Shown here: piece after piece, positions 7,075-57,580 of the stretch
Numbering within the stretch: position 1 is the first letter of the stretch
Layout: the number at the start of each line of letters is the position of its first letter
Virus record (IMG/VR): IMGVR_UViG_3300032562_000006
Direction: 5' to 3' (one strand)
DNA: 64,000 bases
DNA from: an uncultured virus (IMG/VR IMGVR_UViG_3300032562_000006)
Lineage: Duplodnaviria > Heunggongvirae > Uroviricota > Caudoviricetes
Notes under the pieces: generated by a model
Told to the model about the DNA's origin: nothing
The model's input: the letters and a program-made list of their open reading frames with translations, nothing else
Databases searched by the model: none
Made by a program: the position numbers and the translations under genes

Positions 7075-7992
7075 ATGGGTACGGGTACGCAGCTGTTCGA
7101 TGACTACGTGAAGTTCCACCAGATACAGATTGCAAACCGGGATGTGGATCCGGTGTACCCGGTGCTGCGTGAGGTAGCAGAGATACTGGGATGGACGCCG
7201 GAAGAGAGAATCCGGTCGGTGTTCCTGCACGTAGCGTACTATGACCTCGGTTCTGCACTCGCCGCGCTAGACGGAAAGAGCGGCGCGTTCCTGACTGCAT
7301 TCACGCAGCCGCGTGAGGGTCTTGCGTGCGGGACGGAGCGACGTCGGCACCGGATGGGTGACAACCTGGCAGTGCATCTGCATCATCTTGACAACATCGC
7401 CATCCGGTACAACGGATTGTCCACCTGGGTGCAGGAACTCATTACCGATGATCCGGTTAGCAACTGGACGTATGTCAGCACAAGACTCATGGAAGTCGAC
7501 GGAAACGGCCGGTGGAGCGCTTTCAAAACCTGCGAGATGCTCGCGGAAGTGTGCGGGATGCCGCTCCGGGCTCCGGATATGGGGCATGCGAACAGTTCGG
7601 GACCCCGGCAGGGACTGGAACTGCTGTATCCGGCTACGCAGTACCTCAAGGGGAACCGGCCTGGGGTGATCGCTGCGCTGAATGTGACATCGAACCTGCT
7701 AGTCTGGGAATTGCAGGCCCGAGGAGCTGAGGCGTCGCTGGAAACAGCCGAGACGACGCTGTGTGACTTCCACAGTCTGGCGGAAGGGCGATACTATCCC
7801 GGGCTGGACATCGACGTCATGCAGGAGCAGGTACAGCGCGCGCCGATGAACGAGTGGATGCGCGGGATCGCGCTCGCGGCCCGGCGGGCGACGCTGCCGG
7901 AACCGTATCTCGGGGAGCTGCACGGGCGGACAGGGCCGGACCGGGCACGCAAGCGCGTGTACAAGCTGACAGGGGAGATCGTGACCCGATGA
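7075..7992 (+). CDS. amino acid:DNA transferase (aGPT-PPlase clade 2-like, glycosylase-fold) for thymidine hypermodification
   Basis: DVDPVY, GTERRRHR, GNGRWSAFKTCEML, ETTLCDF, YYPGLDI motifs; context with kinase and TET/JBP. Confidence 0.75.
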   Translation: MGTGTQLFDDYVKFHQIQIANRDVDPVYPVLREVAEILGWTPEERIRSVFLHVAYYDLGSALAALDGKSGAFLTAFTQPREGLACGTERRRHRMGDNLAVHLHHLDNIAIRYNGLSTWVQELITDDPVSNWTYVSTRLMEVDGNGRWSAFKTCEMLAEVCGMPLRAPDMGHANSSGPRQGLELLYPATQYLKGNRPGVIAALNVTSNLLVWELQARGAEASLETAETTLCDFHSLAEGRYYPGLDIDVMQEQVQRAPMNEWMRGIALAARRATLPEPYLGELHGRTGPDRARKRVYKLTGEIVTR

Positions 7993-10764: not shown

Positions 10765-11346
10765 GTGGATCTAGTTTACCTAGCAGGAGCCCCCGCGACG
10801 GGGAAGAGCACGCTGATGGCGGAGCTGACACGCGGTGCCGTGCGAGAGAGTCGGCTTGACTACAAGCTGGTGCCCTACGACGAGCTGCTGGTTGACGGTG
10901 AGATTGTCGGCGCGGAGATTGGCAGGAAACGGGCCAACTTCCCGGGAACCGACACACTCGCCATGAACGCGCTGCCTCGGGTATCAGAGTGGCTTGAGGC
11001 GAAGCTGCTAGACGTGGTATGTGCCGAGGGAGACCGGCTCACGCACATTCGCTTCCTGGATGCGGCGGCGGCGGCCGGGTACCAGGTGAATCTGTTCCTG
11101 CTGTCAGCCCGGATGACGGTGCTGGATGAGCGGTGTGCGGCACGCGGATCGGAGCAGAGTCGCGCCTGGCGGCTGAGTCGCGGGACGATGTGCTCGCGCG
11201 TCGGGGCGATGGCAGAAGAAAAGGGATATCGGGTATTCCACCTGGATGCCGAATTGGAAACCGGGGAACTCGCTGAGTTCGTGCGCGAGAAGGTACCCGT
11301 CATGCGTCAGCTGCGGGAGCGGGCGGACGGTGCGGCATGGCGGTAG
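10765..11346 (+). CDS. P-loop nucleotide kinase of the type linked to base-modification clusters (candidate 5hmU kinase)
   Basis: GAPATGKST Walker A; GTDTLAM; AEGDRL; ERCAARGS lid. Confidence 0.75.
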   Translation: MDLVYLAGAPATGKSTLMAELTRGAVRESRLDYKLVPYDELLVDGEIVGAEIGRKRANFPGTDTLAMNALPRVSEWLEAKLLDVVCAEGDRLTHIRFLDAAAAAGYQVNLFLLSARMTVLDERCAARGSEQSRAWRLSRGTMCSRVGAMAEEKGYRVFHLDAELETGELAEFVREKVPVMRQLRERADGAAWR

Positions 11347-12590
11347 TGCGAACCCCGTCAGTCCGAATCGGATTCCGGGTGGCGGACAGCGTGCTGGAAC
11401 GGGATGTGGTGTCGCGGACTCTGGATGAGCGTGACTATAATCTCCTTCTGAATCGAGAAGGCGGTCCGGTGATGGTCTACATGCCGGACGGGCGACCTCT
11501 GGCATGCTACCTGCCCGGGGTGCTGAATGACGTCATGGACGAAGTGGATGCGTATCGGGTACTGCATCCGCTGCACTCCAGCATGACAAACAATCGAGGG
11601 ATGGCGTCCGGATCCCGGAGGATTGAGCGCGGGGGCGGCGGCGGGACGCGCAGCGACGCGATGAACGTATCATCGGTCATCCTCGGCGCGTTTGAGCCTA
11701 GCGGCGTGTACCGGTACTGCCGGATGACGGAATGGACAGGGCGGAATCTGCCGGAGTGGGAGGCGCTAGCTCCGCTGTTCCGGGTGATAGGACGTCACTT
11801 TGAGGAACGAGTGACCGAGCGGTACAACGTGCAGATGGAACTGGCGCGCAAGACCGACACCTCGTGGGTGGTACCTGGCACGCCGTTCACGTCTATCACG
11901 GTGAATAACAGTTATCCGACCGGAGTACACAAGGACGACGGGGATCTGGAAGACGGCTTCAGTACCATCGCGTGCATTCGGCGCGGGGAATACGAAGGCG
12001 GGGTGCTGGTGTTCCCCCAGTATCGCGTCGGGGTGAATTTGATGGACGGGGATCTGCTGCTGATGGACGCCCATCAGTGGCACGGAAATACCCGGATGAC
12101 ATGCGCCTGCGGCGAGCGGATCGTGAACAAGTTCTGCAGCTACTGCGGAGCGGAGCGGATCAGTATTGTCTCTTACTTCCGGACGCGGATGGCAAACTGC
12201 GGCAGTCCGGAAGAAGAACTTGAGCGGGCGGTAGCCAACACGGAAAAGCGCTCCCAGCCGCGTCCGGTCAGCAAGACAGAATCAGCGCCTGAACCTGAGC
12301 CAGCTGCGGAGACGGAAGTCGTCCAGCTGGACGAGCCTGCGGCTGCTGTCATACTGCCCGATGCGGAGCGGCTCCCGGAGCCTGAGGTTGAGGATGCGCC
12401 TGCAGTCAAGCCGAAGCGCACCCGGAAACCCAAGGGGGCTTCAATTGCAACTGTGCCTCCGGCGGTAGAGGCGGAGCCTGAGCCGGTGAGCGCTCCGGTG
12501 AAGAAGGTACGCACTCCACGCAGGAAGCCTGCAGCGGCAGTGCCGAAGCCCGCTGTTGATCCCGTGACTGGTGAGCCCCTGGAAGGGTGA
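11337..12590 (+). CDS. TET/JBP-family 2OG-Fe(II) dioxygenase with Pro/Ala/Lys-rich C-terminal tail
   Basis: TPFTSITVN, HKDDGD (HxD), HQWHGNT, ERISIVSYFR. Confidence 0.88.
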   Translation: MAVVRTPSVRIGFRVADSVLERDVVSRTLDERDYNLLLNREGGPVMVYMPDGRPLACYLPGVLNDVMDEVDAYRVLHPLHSSMTNNRGMASGSRRIERGGGGGTRSDAMNVSSVILGAFEPSGVYRYCRMTEWTGRNLPEWEALAPLFRVIGRHFEERVTERYNVQMELARKTDTSWVVPGTPFTSITVNNSYPTGVHKDDGDLEDGFSTIACIRRGEYEGGVLVFPQYRVGVNLMDGDLLLMDAHQWHGNTRMTCACGERIVNKFCSYCGAERISIVSYFRTRMANCGSPEEELERAVANTEKRSQPRPVSKTESAPEPEPAAETEVVQLDEPAAAVILPDAERLPEPEVEDAPAVKPKRTRKPKGASIATVPPAVEAEPEPVSAPVKKVRTPRRKPAAAVPKPAVDPVTGEPLEG

Positions 12591-13147
12591 TGAGGATGGC
12601 ACGTCGACTTGAGACTGCGGACCGTGATGCGCAGATGTACATTCTCCATAAGGAGAACGTTCCGCACGAGGCTATCGCCAAACGGTTCGATGTGTCTACT
12701 GCGACAGTCGGGAAAGGTATCCAGCGAGCCATCCATGACACGTTCCGGTTCAGCGCCGATGAGGATCGCATGGTCCTGGCGGATCAAATCGACGCGCTCA
12801 TGTTCAAGCTTCGGCGACTCCTCGCGGAGCCGCAGTACATGGTCAGCGTCAGCGGCAAGGTGGTCATCAACCCGGTTACCGGGGAGCCGTTGGTCGATCG
12901 CTCGCACGAGGTACGAGTCATGGAATCCCTGCGCAAGTTCATGGACATGCGCGCCAAGCTGCTCGGGCTTAACATGCCGGTCCGGCATCGGGTTGAGATC
13001 ACTGACAAGATGGATGACGAGATCGAGCGGCTGGCGTCGGAACTCATGCTGCACGGAGCGGGCAGCGGGATTCCGGCGGAACTGCCAGCCGGAGAAATCG
13101 TGAACGGTGAGGTTGAGCATGGCAGTGCTGACGCCGGAACCAGATGA
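12587..13147 (+). CDS. terS: terminase small subunit
   Basis: N-terminal HTH (HEAIAKRFDVSTATV), RAKLLGLNMP motif, directly before terL. Confidence 0.75.
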   Translation: MMRMARRLETADRDAQMYILHKENVPHEAIAKRFDVSTATVGKGIQRAIHDTFRFSADEDRMVLADQIDALMFKLRRLLAEPQYMVSVSGKVVINPVTGEPLVDRSHEVRVMESLRKFMDMRAKLLGLNMPVRHRVEITDKMDDEIERLASELMLHGAGSGIPAELPAGEIVNGEVEHGSADAGTR

Positions 13148-15914
13148 GCCTGAAGGGGACGAAAAGGAGACCGAGCTTCCCTCCGACTGGCGGGATCTGA
13201 GTCCCGAGGCGAAGAAGGTGCTGCTCCACAAGCTGCGCGGGCGGCATGTTTCGCTGGGACTGGGGGGGCCTCGGGGGTGGCGGTCGCTAGCGAGGCCGAA
13301 GCAGCTGCCGCCGAATGACCCGATGCACCATCTGCCAGATGAGAACGGGTTTGCTTGCGGATGCGATGGTCCAGATGAGAACTGGAACATCTGGATGTTC
13401 ATGGCCGGACGAGGGTGCGTCGCAGGTGAGACTAGGATATACCTGCCTTTGGAGAACCGGCACGAGCGAATTGACGTACTTGCTCGCGCCGGGGAGCCGA
13501 TCGTCGTCTCCTCGCTGACAGAGGGGGGAGCCCGTCCGGTGCTGACCGATGGGGCTCCATTCGTGCGCGGCGTAGATCAGCTGTACCGGGTGACGATGGA
13601 CGATGGGAGAGCTATCACTGCCACCGATCGTCACCGATTCCTGACTCCGCAAGGATGGCGGCTACTCGCTGACGTGCGCGTCGGACAGCCTCTAGCCGGA
13701 GGCGCTCCCGTTCCTCCGGGGGCAGATTTCTCTTACCGATCAACGTATCGCGGAGATGCGCGGCATTGGAAGAATACAGCCGCAAGTTCTCAACTCGATT
13801 ATCCGACGTATCCCCGTTACGGTGGTCCACTACCTCATCCGGAAGCAGATAGCGGCCGAGGAAATGCTCCATCATCAGACGGTGCTGACGCACGTAGCCT
13901 GATGATGTCGCATGCGGATGATCGGGTATCCTCACCAGGATGTAACCATCTTCGTCGACAGAGTAGCCACCACGCCAGAAGTAGTTACGCTCCGGGTGAG
14001 CTTTCGCTTCCAGCCGTGGCAACTCTAGCTCTATCAGACGCTGACGCACTGTCTCCTCATTACAGCCCAGCATCTCAGCCATCTCGCGGCATGTCAGCTG
14101 ATGCGATTGGAAATAGCGCAGGCGCTCTTCATCCAGGTAGAACCGGCGCGATTCCGACATCAACTTACGGGTGGCGGGGGTTTTCTGACGACCGCGCAGC
14201 TGAACTCCGGCCTTCTGGAGAGCACGACCTACTGTCTGATAGGATACTCCGGCAGTCTTGGCTAGATCCTTCAAGTTCTCCCCGGCTTGGTAGCGCTCTA
14301 TCAGACTGGGAAGCAGCTCAGGAGGAATCCGGGAAAAACCTAGCGGCGGCATACACCCATACTACAGTATGGACGCGGGTCCTGGCTATAACCCCCGCAG
14401 GGACCGGGCTGTTCTACGATATGACAGTGCCGGGATCGGAGAACTATGCCGCCGAGGGAATGTGGAACCACAACTGCGGGAAGACCTGGGCCGGAGCTAA
14501 CTGGATCATCGAGCAAGCGCTGAAAGACCCTGGCTCGGTTTGGGCTGTTGTCGCACCTACATTCCGCGACGTTAGAGTCACCTGCTTCGAGGGTCCTTCC
14601 GGAATTCGGAAACAGCTCGAACCCGGTGAAGAGGCCCAATGGCGGAGGAATGAACTTCGTCTGGACTTGGTAAACGGCTCGATTATCTACGGATACTCAG
14701 CTGACCAACCAGAACGACTTCGCGGTTCTAACCTTTCCGGGGCTTGGTGCGACGAGACCGGGAGCTGGCAATATGAGGAGACCTGGTATGAGGGTCTTGT
14801 TCCTGCGCTGAGAATTGGCAAGCACCCGCGTGTCATGGTCACGTCTACCCCGCGACCCACGCATCTGATCCGGGACCTGTTCAACCGACGTGACGGCACT
14901 ATGCACGCCACAAGCGCCAGCACATGGGAGAATGCAAAGAATCTCTCCGCTGCCGCGCTTGATGAACTCCGGCGTCGTTACGAAGGAACACGTCTCGGTC
15001 GTCAGGAGCTTGAAGGCGTCCTGCTGGACGACCTTGAGGGGGCTTTGTGGAAGCGTTCCGATATCGACGCGGCCCGAGTGAAGCTAGCGGATGTGCCGGA
15101 TCTGGTACGGGTGGTTGTCGGTATTGACCCGGCAGTCACGTCCGGGGAGGAATCGGACGAGACCGGTATCATCGTCGCTGGTGATGACGGACACGGACAC
15201 GGCTACGTTCTCGGTGACTATTCCATGAAGGGAACGCCTGACCAGTGCATGCGCGAAGCCGTGCGAGCTTACAAGCGCCATGGCGCGGACTGCATCGTTG
15301 CGGAAGTCAACAACGGCGGTGACTTCATCGGCACCGTGCTCCGGAACGTGGACCCGGAAGTGCCGTACCGAACGGTGAGAGCGTCGCGAGGCAAGGCTAT
15401 CCGGGCAGAGCCAGTGTCAGCGCTTGCAGAGCAGCGACGGCTGCATCATGTGGGGTCATTCCCTGAACTGGAAGACCAGATGTGCAGCCTGGTCCCGGGC
15501 ATTTCCGCAGGACCTGATGACCGGGTGGACGCCTGCGTCTGGGCTGTGTTCGAGCTGCGCGGGCTGAGTCAGGCGTCGTGGCTCAGTGCCTACGGCGTCG
15601 CTCGCTGCGCGGGATGCGACCATGCGTATAGCGTCGGGCTCAAGGAATGCCCGCGCTGCCGGGCTGCCAATCCGCTGGAAGCCGAGCGGACGGTTGTCGC
15701 TGGCGAGGTGGTCGTGGATGATGGTGATGTACCTCAGCCCGGTGGATGGGCTTATGTGTACGGCATCAAGAGATGCCCAAAGGGACACGCCTACTCCGAC
15801 CGGAACGGGAATGCGGGAACCTGCCCGCGCTGCCGAGGCGGAGGGCTGGATTTCCTGCGGAGTACGGGGCGCGGGTTGACACCCGGCGGCGGGACTGGTA
15901 TGATTCAGTCGTGA
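13119..15914 (+). CDS. terL: terminase large subunit, intein-containing
   Basis: Walker A GRG|CGKT after splicing; PERLRG, WCDE Walker B, TSTP; nuclease GIDPA...DDRVDA. Confidence 0.95.
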   Translation: MAVLTPEPDEPEGDEKETELPSDWRDLSPEAKKVLLHKLRGRHVSLGLGGPRGWRSLARPKQLPPNDPMHHLPDENGFACGCDGPDENWNIWMFMAGRGCVAGETRIYLPLENRHERIDVLARAGEPIVVSSLTEGGARPVLTDGAPFVRGVDQLYRVTMDDGRAITATDRHRFLTPQGWRLLADVRVGQPLAGGAPVPPGADFSYRSTYRGDARHWKNTAASSQLDYPTYPRYGGPLPHPEADSGRGNAPSSDGADARSLMMSHADDRVSSPGCNHLRRQSSHHARSSYAPGELSLPAVATLALSDADALSPHYSPASQPSRGMSADAIGNSAGALHPGRTGAIPTSTYGWRGFSDDRAAELRPSGEHDLLSDRILRQSWLDPSSSPRLGSALSDWEAAQEESGKNLAAAYTHTTVWTRVLAITPAGTGLFYDMTVPGSENYAAEGMWNHNCGKTWAGANWIIEQALKDPGSVWAVVAPTFRDVRVTCFEGPSGIRKQLEPGEEAQWRRNELRLDLVNGSIIYGYSADQPERLRGSNLSGAWCDETGSWQYEETWYEGLVPALRIGKHPRVMVTSTPRPTHLIRDLFNRRDGTMHATSASTWENAKNLSAAALDELRRRYEGTRLGRQELEGVLLDDLEGALWKRSDIDAARVKLADVPDLVRVVVGIDPAVTSGEESDETGIIVAGDDGHGHGYVLGDYSMKGTPDQCMREAVRAYKRHGADCIVAEVNNGGDFIGTVLRNVDPEVPYRTVRASRGKAIRAEPVSALAEQRRLHHVGSFPELEDQMCSLVPGISAGPDDRVDACVWAVFELRGLSQASWLSAYGVARCAGCDHAYSVGLKECPRCRAANPLEAERTVVAGEVVVDDGDVPQPGGWAYVYGIKRCPKGHAYSDRNGNAGTCPRCRGGGLDFLRSTGRGLTPGGGTGMIQS
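13416..14474 (+). mobile_element. 353-aa intein in the TerL Walker A motif
   Basis: starts CVAGETRI; block B ATDRHRF; block F FYDMTV; ends NHN followed by Cys+1. Confidence 0.92.
13615..14352 (-). CDS. HNH homing endonuclease with two N-terminal HTHs, encoded antisense within the intein
   Basis: WRGG...DGYI...HP...GYVRQHRLMMEHFLGRYL...EVVDHRNGDTSDNRVENL; HTHs LKDLAKTAGVSYQTV and CREMAEMLGCNEETV; TAGTAT -10 six nt before ATG. Confidence 0.9.
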   Translation of the reverse strand: MPPLGFSRIPPELLPSLIERYQAGENLKDLAKTAGVSYQTVGRALQKAGVQLRGRQKTPATRKLMSESRRFYLDEERLRYFQSHQLTCREMAEMLGCNEETVRQRLIELELPRLEAKAHPERNYFWRGGYSVDEDGYILVRIPDHPHATSSGYVRQHRLMMEHFLGRYLLPDEVVDHRNGDTSDNRVENLRLYSSNAAHLRDTLIGKRNLPPEERERLRLEAVRRARQRVAAILAESGIGDDRWQ

Positions 15915-32648: not shown

Positions 32649-33002
32649 ATGAGTCAGAGAGTTCAGCTCCCGCCCGGTTGCGCCGGATTCCGGTGCGCGG
32701 ATGGATCGGTTTACTCCGCTAAGGCGGGGACATCAGTAGTGCTTGAGGACCGGCACGCAAAAGCTCTCTCCAGCAGTCAGCACCAAAGTATCGGGCTGGT
32801 GAAGGCTGGAGAGAGCTTCGCGCTCGGAACTAAGAAGGGGAGGTACTGCTCCGGATGCGCCAGGATCTGGCAGGCTTGGTCTCTTGAATGTCCAAAGTGC
32901 GGAGAAGAGACGTACGAGTTGCTACCGGCGTCTGCACTGGAGTCGGATGAGACCTCAGCCAGCACTCAAAGCAGTTTGCCCACTCTGAACGGAACTGCTT
33001 GA
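32649..33002 (+). CDS. zinc-ribbon hypothetical protein
   Basis: CSGC...CPKCG; leaderless, TAGGAT -10 at 32637-42. Confidence 0.65.
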   Translation: MSQRVQLPPGCAGFRCADGSVYSAKAGTSVVLEDRHAKALSSSQHQSIGLVKAGESFALGTKKGRYCSGCARIWQAWSLECPKCGEETYELLPASALESDETSASTQSSLPTLNGTA

Positions 33003-57506: not shown

Positions 57507-57580
57507 GCGGTACTGTCCTTCCGGTTGCATGCCCGTTGCGGGCATGTGCTAAACCTAGCAGCTGCGAGCAGTGGATGCAA

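Follow-up and report, generated by a model that had tools for sequence, protein, structure and literature searches.

Inteins whose homing endonuclease is encoded by a separate gene on the opposite strand have been described before. Antisense genes for LAGLIDADG and VSR-like nucleases were reported in actinophage inteins by Gosselin, Arsenault and Gogarten (bioRxiv 10.1101/2025.01.02.630785). As far as the text of that preprint goes, the terminase large subunit is among four host protein types for such non-canonical endonucleases, Gorbalenya 1998 and Gogarten 2002 are cited for the antisense LAGLIDADG genes of Synechocystis dnaX and of a Chloroflexus SpoVR-like protein, and a free-standing endonuclease is proposed to have invaded an intein, with signs of continuing horizontal transfer. 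The locus analyzed here lies in a 64,000-nucleotide stretch of an uncultured virus of the Caudoviricetes (IMG/VR record IMGVR_UViG_3300032562_000006), called the window below, to which all coordinates refer unless another locus is named. An intein interrupts the Walker A motif of its terminase large subunit (TerL), and a separate antisense gene for a nuclease with two helix-turn-helix (HTH) modules and an HNH_3 core lies between the splicing domains. With a probability of about 85% this is a non-canonical mobile intein for which the antisense HTH-HTH-HNH_3 gene supplies the homing endonuclease. Splicing, minus-strand transcription from a −10 element and site-specific cleavage are steps that we infer from the sequence.

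The layout agrees with that of the antisense-endonuclease inteins in the preprint: the endonuclease open reading frame (ORF) is on the opposite strand between blocks B and F, the host ORF is uninterrupted, and the in-frame stretch has no recognizable fold. The nuclease differs, being HTH-HTH-HNH_3 here, whereas HNH is listed in the text of the preprint only in frame. Since the nuclease is HNH_3 and not LAGLIDADG or VSR-like, the locus was filed as a variant of antisense-endonuclease inteins, in which an arrangement in print for other nucleases is occupied by an HNH gene, and not as a new class. The original prediction, an earlier note on this DNA, had regarded the arrangement as an intein class not yet described; this has to be given up, since antisense LAGLIDADG and VSR-like cases are in print and only the HNH type goes unreported in the text of the preprint. 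The main text of the preprint does not contain the word "promoter", whereas a conserved −10 with leaderless start, replaced by a Shine-Dalgarno sequence in a sister group, was found here, as was a relative frame that is fixed in 77 clusters of related loci (defined below). The extension of the nuclease tail over block B and the hosts other than TerL shown here also go beyond what is described there. No published report of an antisense HNH gene in an intein was found, subscription journals and the supplements of the preprint lying outside the search.

Several other systems are comparable in part. In a cyanobacterial dnaX intein the nuclease is encoded on the same strand out of frame, with selection on the nuclease frame and relaxation of the overlapping intein frame (10.64898/2026.09.14.751524), and in ShiLan a hidden HNH is inserted in a phage methylase (PMC11855218). 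As far as these two accounts go, both resemble the window in that a host frame remains open where the nuclease ORF overlaps it; both encode the nuclease in a different frame of the host strand, whereas here it is antisense, has its own start signals and sits in a complete intein, and ShiLan lacks the splicing domains present in the window. The ShiLan methylase gene was itself a weak tblastn match of the window HNH (48.6% over amino acids (aa) 121-190). In the fractured genes described by Dassa et al. (2009, PMC2677866), one of them for a terminase, a free-standing endonuclease gene lies between split-intein halves; like the window, they are phage-like genes with an endonuclease gene of free-standing type at the endonuclease insertion point of the intein. 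The TerL P-loop inteins of mycobacteriophages, as presented by Kelley et al. (2016, PMC5050341), likewise occupy Walker A of TerL and have spread horizontally among phages. Their classic site, TerL1-a, is between Lys and Thr (GK/T, the slash marking the junction), and the window site, AGRG/CGKT, is two residues earlier. An HNH_3 core joined to modular DNA-binding domains is shared with I-HmuI-type and free-standing phage HNH_3 enzymes, the genes of which are intron-encoded or intergenic, unlike the window HNH.

The host gene is an ORF of 935 aa on the plus strand (13107-15914) that runs uninterrupted across both exteins. It was matched in Pfam by Terminase_6N (E = 1.4e-20), Terminase_6C (E = 7.5e-18) and Intein_splicing (E = 5.4e-09), the last stretched across residues 157-456. 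The N-extein (13107-13415, plus strand) ends in the first half of Walker A (..AGRG), and its start codon is uncertain, GTG at 13107 or ATG at 13119. The C-extein (14475-15914, plus strand) begins with CGKT and comprises ATPase and RNaseH-like nuclease domains followed by a Cys-rich C-terminal extension, as indicated by Terminase_6N/6C and by tblastn to phage TerL genes. Between the two lies a class 1 intein of 353 aa (13416-14474, plus strand) with the junctions AGRG/CVAGE...MWNHN/CGKT, placing it inside Walker A (AxxxxGKT) ahead of the +1 Cys. Intein_splicing was the sole Pfam match of this piece (E = 4.5e-10); no in-frame nuclease family was found in it with Pfam, and the number of PHROG families matched was zero. 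The class 1 features, C1 in block A, TxxH in block B and blocks F and G, are all present. C1, T70, H73, W319, D335, H352 and N353 were invariant in an alignment of 24 related inteins, and the +1 residue is Cys in the window and Cys, Ser or Thr in the relatives (HN/[CST]GK[TS]).

The intein was folded with AlphaFold 2 (AF2) using the alignment of the 24 related sense-frame inteins (A2). Residues 1-100 and 321-353 were modeled confidently, with a predicted local distance difference test score (pLDDT) of 78-96. They include the N-terminal splicing domain (aa 1-94; 13416-13697, plus strand), which holds block B (T70-H73; 13623-13634) and is homologous to two mini-inteins treated below, and the C-terminal splicing domain of 41 aa (14352-14474, plus strand), which holds blocks F and G, ends in HN and has a pLDDT of 79-96 over aa 321-353. 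In a Foldseek search the Mtu RecA intein was matched by the folded part through its splicing domain (31% identity, E = 8.9e-07), as were gp41-1, the DnaB mini-inteins of Ssp and Npu and further inteins; there were 24 PDB matches at E ≤ 0.001, and inteins, with the HINT fold, were among the first 23 ranks listed. Because the catalytic residues are intact and TerL is indispensable for packaging, the TerL precursor probably splices.

Wholly within the intein, on the minus strand, is an ORF of 245 aa (13615-14352) that appears, from Pfam, PHROG, the AF2 model and selection, to be a homing endonuclease gene of the free-standing type. The first HTH (aa 13-55; 14188-14316) was matched by Pfam HTH_58 (E = 1.2e-07) and HTH_28 (E = 3.4e-07) and has helices over aa 14-47; the second (aa 77-106; 14035-14124) was matched by Sigma70_r4 (E = 2.9e-06) and HTH_23 (E = 5.8e-06), with helices over aa 75-108. 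The catalytic core (aa 156-196; 13765-13887) matched HNH_3 with E = 2.2e-11 and 43.6 bits against a cut-off of 24.8, and the ORF matched PHROG HNH endonuclease families with a best E of 8.4e-24. H157, D176, H177, N185, N189, N196 and H199 were invariant in 27 family members, the alignment of which (A1) was used for an AF2 model of the protein. The model had a mean pLDDT of 80.9, reaching 91-96 across aa 131-200, and showed two three-helix modules and a long C-terminal helix (aa 212-237). I-HmuI (1u3e) was the best nuclease in the Foldseek search with this model, a weak match at rank 5 (E = 0.16, probability 0.82), and a profile search of PDB sequences with the HNH gave just two HTH proteins. 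The C-terminal tail (aa 218-245; 13618-13701, minus strand) is antisense to the intein N-domain including block B, which the last six HNH codons overlie by their coordinates, and is almost invariant within the HNH family.

The sense frame through the HNH DNA is open. In the frame relation found here, sense codon position 2 is opposite HNH position 3, sense position 3 opposite HNH position 2, and position 1 opposite position 1; a sense stop can arise solely where an HNH codon NTT, NCT or NTC precedes a codon beginning with A. The stop-counting rule was checked against direct translation and agreed in 300 of 300 shuffles. No stop was present in the sense frame, and 7 and 18 were present in the other two frames on the side opposite the HNH. 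All null models kept the HNH protein constant. When synonymous codons were permuted within the gene, 3.29 sense stops were expected and the probability of an open frame, P(open), was 0.0145; with the codon usage of four plus-strand window ORFs the values were 4.5 stops and 0.006, and with uniform synonymous choice 6.2 stops and 0.001. The permutation applied across the 77 clusters gave 295 expected stops (mean 3.8 per gene) against 0 observed, with a median P(open) of 0.009 and about 2.3 open frames expected against 77 observed. The frame is open also in clusters with just 41-50% G+C, and HNH identity among clusters is 32-86%, leaving many opportunities for a sense stop to arise. These counts argue that the sense read-through is kept open by selection.

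An open frame might instead be a by-product of G+C-rich antisense DNA, with terL in fact fractured and relying on a split intein. The G+C content here is 56-60%, such DNA has fewer stops, and free-standing endonuclease genes between split-intein halves have the precedents named above (PMC2677866). In those cases, however, as far as they are described there, the host gene is split between two ORFs around a GIY-YIG or VSR-like nuclease, whereas in the window a single ORF of 935 aa spans both exteins. Sense stops are absent from 77 of 77 clusters, those of low G+C included, and from the window, where 3.3-6.2 were expected and the two other frames are interrupted repeatedly. The codon-shuffle tests refute this explanation for the window, and its probability is close to nil. 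Two of the checks that had been proposed with the original prediction, the synonymous-codon shuffle of the HNH and the inspection of homologs for sense-frame stops, thus came out in its favor, as did its description of a 353-aa Walker A intein with blocks A, B, F and G, of an antisense 245-aa HTH-HTH-HNH gene, and of an open, structureless sense insert.

The sense-frame linker (aa 103-315; 13722-14360, plus strand) is predicted to be disordered, all of its residues having a pLDDT below 50 (about 30 on average), and consists to 55% of Ser, Pro, Arg, Ala and Gly. In the alignment of 24 inteins it shows many indels and no amino-acid conservation, and total intein length across relatives is 281-401 aa. 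Nucleotide changes were counted by codon position on the 215 linker-facing HNH codons and on the last 30 codons. Between the window and locus L094, changes at HNH positions 1/2/3 numbered 18/16/89 on the 215 codons and 1/6/4 on the last 30; between the window and locus L097 they numbered 54/47/129 and 1/8/6. Every change at HNH position 3 alters the sense residue, sense position 2 being changed in 89 of the 215 codons relative to L094; therefore the HNH is conserved while the sense frame drifts in the linker. The pattern reverses over the last 30 codons, where HNH position 2, which is the sense wobble base, was the most variable position across 29 sequences.

By these patterns the HNH is under purifying selection, and the linker is a tolerated stretch and not a second real coding sequence. 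The last 28 or so HNH codons, which face the intein N-domain and block B, are the sole doubly constrained stretch; the rest of the overlap is an HNH gene whose complement must merely stay open. The expectation that both strands are constrained where the HNH C-terminus runs over block B is therefore upheld, and the phrase "fully dual-coding" applies to that tail and not to the 215 linker-facing codons, where only the HNH frame is constrained. A sense linker that is functional itself, for example as a disordered region timing splicing, with both strands coding throughout, would account for the maintenance of the frame and for the tolerance of inteins of such varied total length, and yet it would hardly be expected to change freely at sense position 2, to accumulate indels without amino-acid conservation, and to give a pLDDT of about 30 and no family match. 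This explanation was judged highly improbable.

The nuclease appears to have expression signals of its own. On the minus strand a −10-like hexamer, TAGTAT (14359-14364), lies six bases 5' of the HNH ATG in a leaderless layout. The HNH start is exactly 123 nt (41 codons) from the last codon of the intein in the window and most close relatives, a spacing kept although HNH N-terminal regions of various lengths occur; other subgroups have a spacing of 126-132 nt. In 24 sequences with the 123-nt spacing, T(−12) and A(−11) were each conserved in 22 and T(−7) in 21, giving a consensus TANNNT, often TGATAGAAT, that ends six bases before the HNH ATG; no Shine-Dalgarno sequence was found upstream of the HNH in these 24. 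A(−11) lies opposite a sense wobble base that is T in 22 of 24, while the residue encoded by that codon varies (Ser 8, Leu 3, Cys 2, Tyr 2, others). Opposite −8 the sense wobble base is T in 16 of 24 (residue Asp in 15 of 24), contrasting with the block F Asp, for which 22 of 24 use GAC; the share of T among third positions of this stretch is 25%. The motif is thus not a shadow of the sense protein.

Leaderless genes of Actinomycetota usually have a lone TANNNT placed this far ahead of the start codon, and one relative (L086) derives from a Kineosporiaceae metagenome-assembled genome. The HNH would be expressed from its own conserved −10 as a leaderless mRNA. In a subgroup with 132-nt spacing (L089, L077, L042, L047, L041, L037 and L045), GGAG was found 7-10 bases upstream of the start in 7 of 7, another way for the antisense gene to be expressed. 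Of the words sampled from the window, 9% and 5% occurred in two metatranscriptome runs from soil; their contigs, which carry no strand, cover 13107-13345 and 15108-15366 only, leaving the intein uncovered. The TAGTAT six bases before the ATG and the separate expression signals for the nuclease, both of them part of the original prediction, are borne out by the conservation of the −10 or of GGAG in relatives.

Near-identical DNA was absent from 50,697 cultured-phage records, and the record nearest to the window was an IMG/VR fragment rated 44% complete (G001). The best TerL relative in cultured phages, that of Microcystis phage Mae-JY09, aligned at 48% identity over the C-extein only. Three TerL relatives carry a long open insert (P0001, with 69% identity over the intein region; P0002, 38%; P0004, 30%), and in two, P0003 and P0005, the site is occupied by a homologous mini-intein, 150 and 165 aa long. 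The HNH had 167 relatives in the protein collection, mostly at 50-67% identity. Loci were found with HNH peptide patterns, and the HNH-alignment scan contributed 80 loci, those kept, from metagenome contigs, 6 from one-per-species genomes and 35 from IMG/VR. A tblastn match to the window HNH at E ≤ 1e-5 was obtained in 123 of 126 loci, and in 120 of these 123 the entire match lay within a stop-free antisense frame of 340-1203 aa; the exceptions, L038-L040, form one cluster. After six loci that duplicate the window's own contigs or L003 had been set aside, the remainder was clustered at 95% identity into 78 clusters, 77 of them intein-borne and all 77 with the relative frame of the window.

Most host ORFs show GxxG/C...HN/[CST]GK[TS]. 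With blastp at an E cut-off of 10, the window N-domain found 72 of the 78 host ORFs and the C-domain 74, and Pfam Intein_splicing matched 46 of the 77 host ORFs submitted at E ≤ 1e-4. In addition, the best Intein_splicing stretch of L078 and L036 falls in a second intein elsewhere in the protein. The host was TerL in 45 of the 77 clusters (the window, 35 through Pfam and 9 through PHROGs), a phage DNA helicase (phrog_62/16, through PHROGs) in 5, phrog_5156 in 3, one of which also matched TraG-D_C, and phrog_31467 in 1; 11 had no family match and 12 were partial ORFs. The helicase-borne units are those of L070, L055, L105, L104 and L122, with Helicase_C found in L105, and the phrog_5156-borne units those of L087, L102 and L088, with TraG-D_C in L088. 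The occurrence of the antisense-HNH intein in TerL, helicases and phrog_5156 means that the P-loop has let the unit pass from one host protein to another. When 1.84 billion representatives were searched by sequence profile, 481 clusters matched the HNH family at E ≤ 1e-30.

The range of hosts bears on the idea that the HNH is a packaging helper of the terminase, cutting cos or pac together with TerL and merely lodged in the intein. HNH genes beside terminase genes are reported as common in phages (PMC3592412, as far as that account extends), and TerL is the most frequent host of the unit. A packaging helper would not, however, be expected with the same intein in phage DNA helicases (5 clusters) and phrog_5156 ATPases (3 clusters), and related TerL genes have mini-inteins without the HNH. 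The tandem HTH and HNH_3 core, for which the homing enzyme I-HmuI is the best, if weak, structural match among nucleases, and the conflict between the history of the HNH and that of TerL described next also point away from packaging, which we regard as very improbable.

The intein and the HNH have moved between TerL genes. In comparison with L094, window identity is 86% for the HNH, 80% for the intein N-domain and 52% for the C-extein, and in comparison with L097 it is 67%, 68% and 81%, respectively. The extein tree groups the window with L097 and the tree of splicing domains plus HNH groups it with L094, each with a Shimodaira-Hasegawa-like approximate likelihood ratio test (SH-aLRT) value of 99, and approximately unbiased (AU) tests rejected the opposite pairings. 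The history of the intein and HNH therefore appears to differ from that of the extein, and because HNH and splicing domains track each other they would move as one unit. In a splicing-domain tree of 46 rows and 141 columns, with limited support, the mini-inteins P0003 and P0005 were nested in an HNH-bearing clade (SH-aLRT 95), and other HNH-bearing lineages fell outside the clade that holds them. Nested among HNH-bearing inteins, they seem to have lost the nuclease secondarily, in keeping with the homing cycle, and were rejected as an ancestral empty state. The earlier proposal that a free-standing HNH gene invaded a mini-intein may still hold for the remote origin; the mini-inteins at hand do not represent that stage.

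Such losses also raise the possibility that the window HNH is a decaying passenger, inactive within a vertically inherited intein. Nuclease decay is expected from homing-cycle theory, and homologous mini-inteins without the gene do exist among HNH-bearing relatives. The ORF is nevertheless intact in the window and its relatives, with changes concentrated at third codon positions; no catalytic or structural residue varies among 27 sequences, its start signals are conserved, and the unit has moved between divergent exteins. A decaying passenger is accordingly considered improbable, and an active antisense nuclease that mobilizes the intein is preferred.

Several points weigh against this preferred reading. 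Foldseek with the whole HNH model returned nothing from the PDB at E ≤ 0.001; therefore the HNH assignment rests on Pfam and PHROGs. A consensus sigma-70 scan of 12400-14800 found no −35/−10 promoter, TG precedes the −10 in just about half of the relatives, and the −10 stands alone. TANNNT-N6-ATG is not enriched across the window (14 found against 10.2 expected), and besides the HNH three such sites begin ORFs of at least 117 aa, so that the claim of a leaderless layout shared with other genes of this phage is overstated. Because the clusters are related, the joint probability of open frames across the 77 clusters is not a formal p-value. The search by peptide patterns means that free-standing relatives without the motifs are under-sampled, and 77 of 78 clusters is therefore not descriptive of all HNH_3 genes. 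The AU p-values (0.017 and 0.0012) pertain to clades that were named after the identities had been seen. The free-standing HNH of L040 has a C-terminal helix similar to that of the window HNH, which weakens an origin of the tail by overprinting.

Free-standing phage relatives of the HNH have 26-53% identity, and the HNH genes of cultured phages align only to about aa 207, short of the tail over block B. Loci L038-L040 carry a 127-aa HNH without HTH modules that adjoins a DnaB-like gene (L040:2974-3357, plus strand). Read in the intein-type frame, the complement of the L040 HNH is interrupted by stops and may retain a faint trace of an intein N-domain, and this HNH may be an escaped copy. The tail of the window HNH may or may not be purely overprinted, since the L040 HNH has the similar helix and, possibly, a decayed intein-like antisense.

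As the sequence shows, terL is read through the entire insert, the reverse complement of the HNH being translated as a foldless linker of about 210 aa. Under the proposed working, the two HINT half-domains would fold around the linker loop and splice to give active TerL. The HNH would be expressed separately from the conserved −10 (TANNNT, often TGnTAnAAT) as a leaderless mRNA, its promoter written in the antisense of the intein C-terminal domain; the sister subgroup would use its GGAG Shine-Dalgarno sequence. The nuclease would cut intein-less P-loop alleles of co-infecting relatives, with repair copying intein and HNH jointly, as the phylogenetic conflict suggests, and the insert, by splitting the target, would protect the resident allele. 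With the last 28 or so HNH codons lying over the N-domain and block B, the partners share coding DNA there. The antisense-HNH intein is always in the same relative frame across a large metagenomic family, which points to one old capture and then a long joint spread. A wider history can be put forward only tentatively, at somewhat less than even odds: a single-origin, interlocked HNH and P-loop intein, tied by promoter, tail and frozen frame, would have spread across hundreds of uncultured-phage lineages, with the shared Walker A coding sequence letting it pass from one P-loop protein to unrelated others (two TerL families, helicases and the phrog_5156 ATPase).

If this is correct, the arrangement is a common alternative way to build a mobile intein, in which a host-type promoter, in place of late terL expression, sets the time of homing. 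Independently of that wider history, HNH_3 becomes a third and apparently abundant nuclease type for inteins with a separate antisense endonuclease gene, with sequence-level evidence for its upkeep in stop selection, in the embedded promoter and leaderless start, and in a short dual-coding region. The findings support the view of intein evolution in which splicing came first and the nuclease was captured later, and show extein switching through the Walker A motif. Natural inteins that tolerate a disordered insert of about 200 aa may be useful to intein engineers. Such genes are easily missed or mis-called because gene callers seldom permit a full antisense gene inside a coding sequence.

Some further features of the window and its relatives were recorded. 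A second, unrelated intein occurs in the C-terminal (nuclease) half of some related TerLs (L003:1647-5093, minus strand; L094/L006; L078; L036; L086), with Intein_splicing spans of 841-1061 in L094, 853-1141 in L078 and 812-1094 in L036. The last 100 or so TerL residues of the window (15650-15914, plus strand) contain two CxxC...CxxC groups, CAGCDH..CPRCR and CPKGH..CPRCR, with weak Pfam zinc-ribbon hints (zf-tcix, E = 0.55; HypA, E = 0.58), and similar Cys pairs are present in the relatives P0001 and L003. A terminator-like hairpin with a T-rich run lies on the plus strand at 13704-13723, where the insert begins, and is at chance level (1 against 1.2 expected in 12400-14800). The three other ORFs of the window that begin at TANNNT-N6-ATG are of 305, 117 and 363 aa, with ATGs at 7075-7077 (plus strand), 32649-32651 (plus strand) and 57543-57545 (minus strand) and an in-frame stop 1-3 codons upstream; they are possible further leaderless genes. 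Upstream of a small-terminase-like ORF, an ORF of 417 aa (11337-12590, plus strand) has the pattern HKDDGD...HQWHGN followed by a long Pro/Ala/Glu-rich tail, a pattern that we take to recall 2-oxoglutarate/Fe(II) oxygenases.

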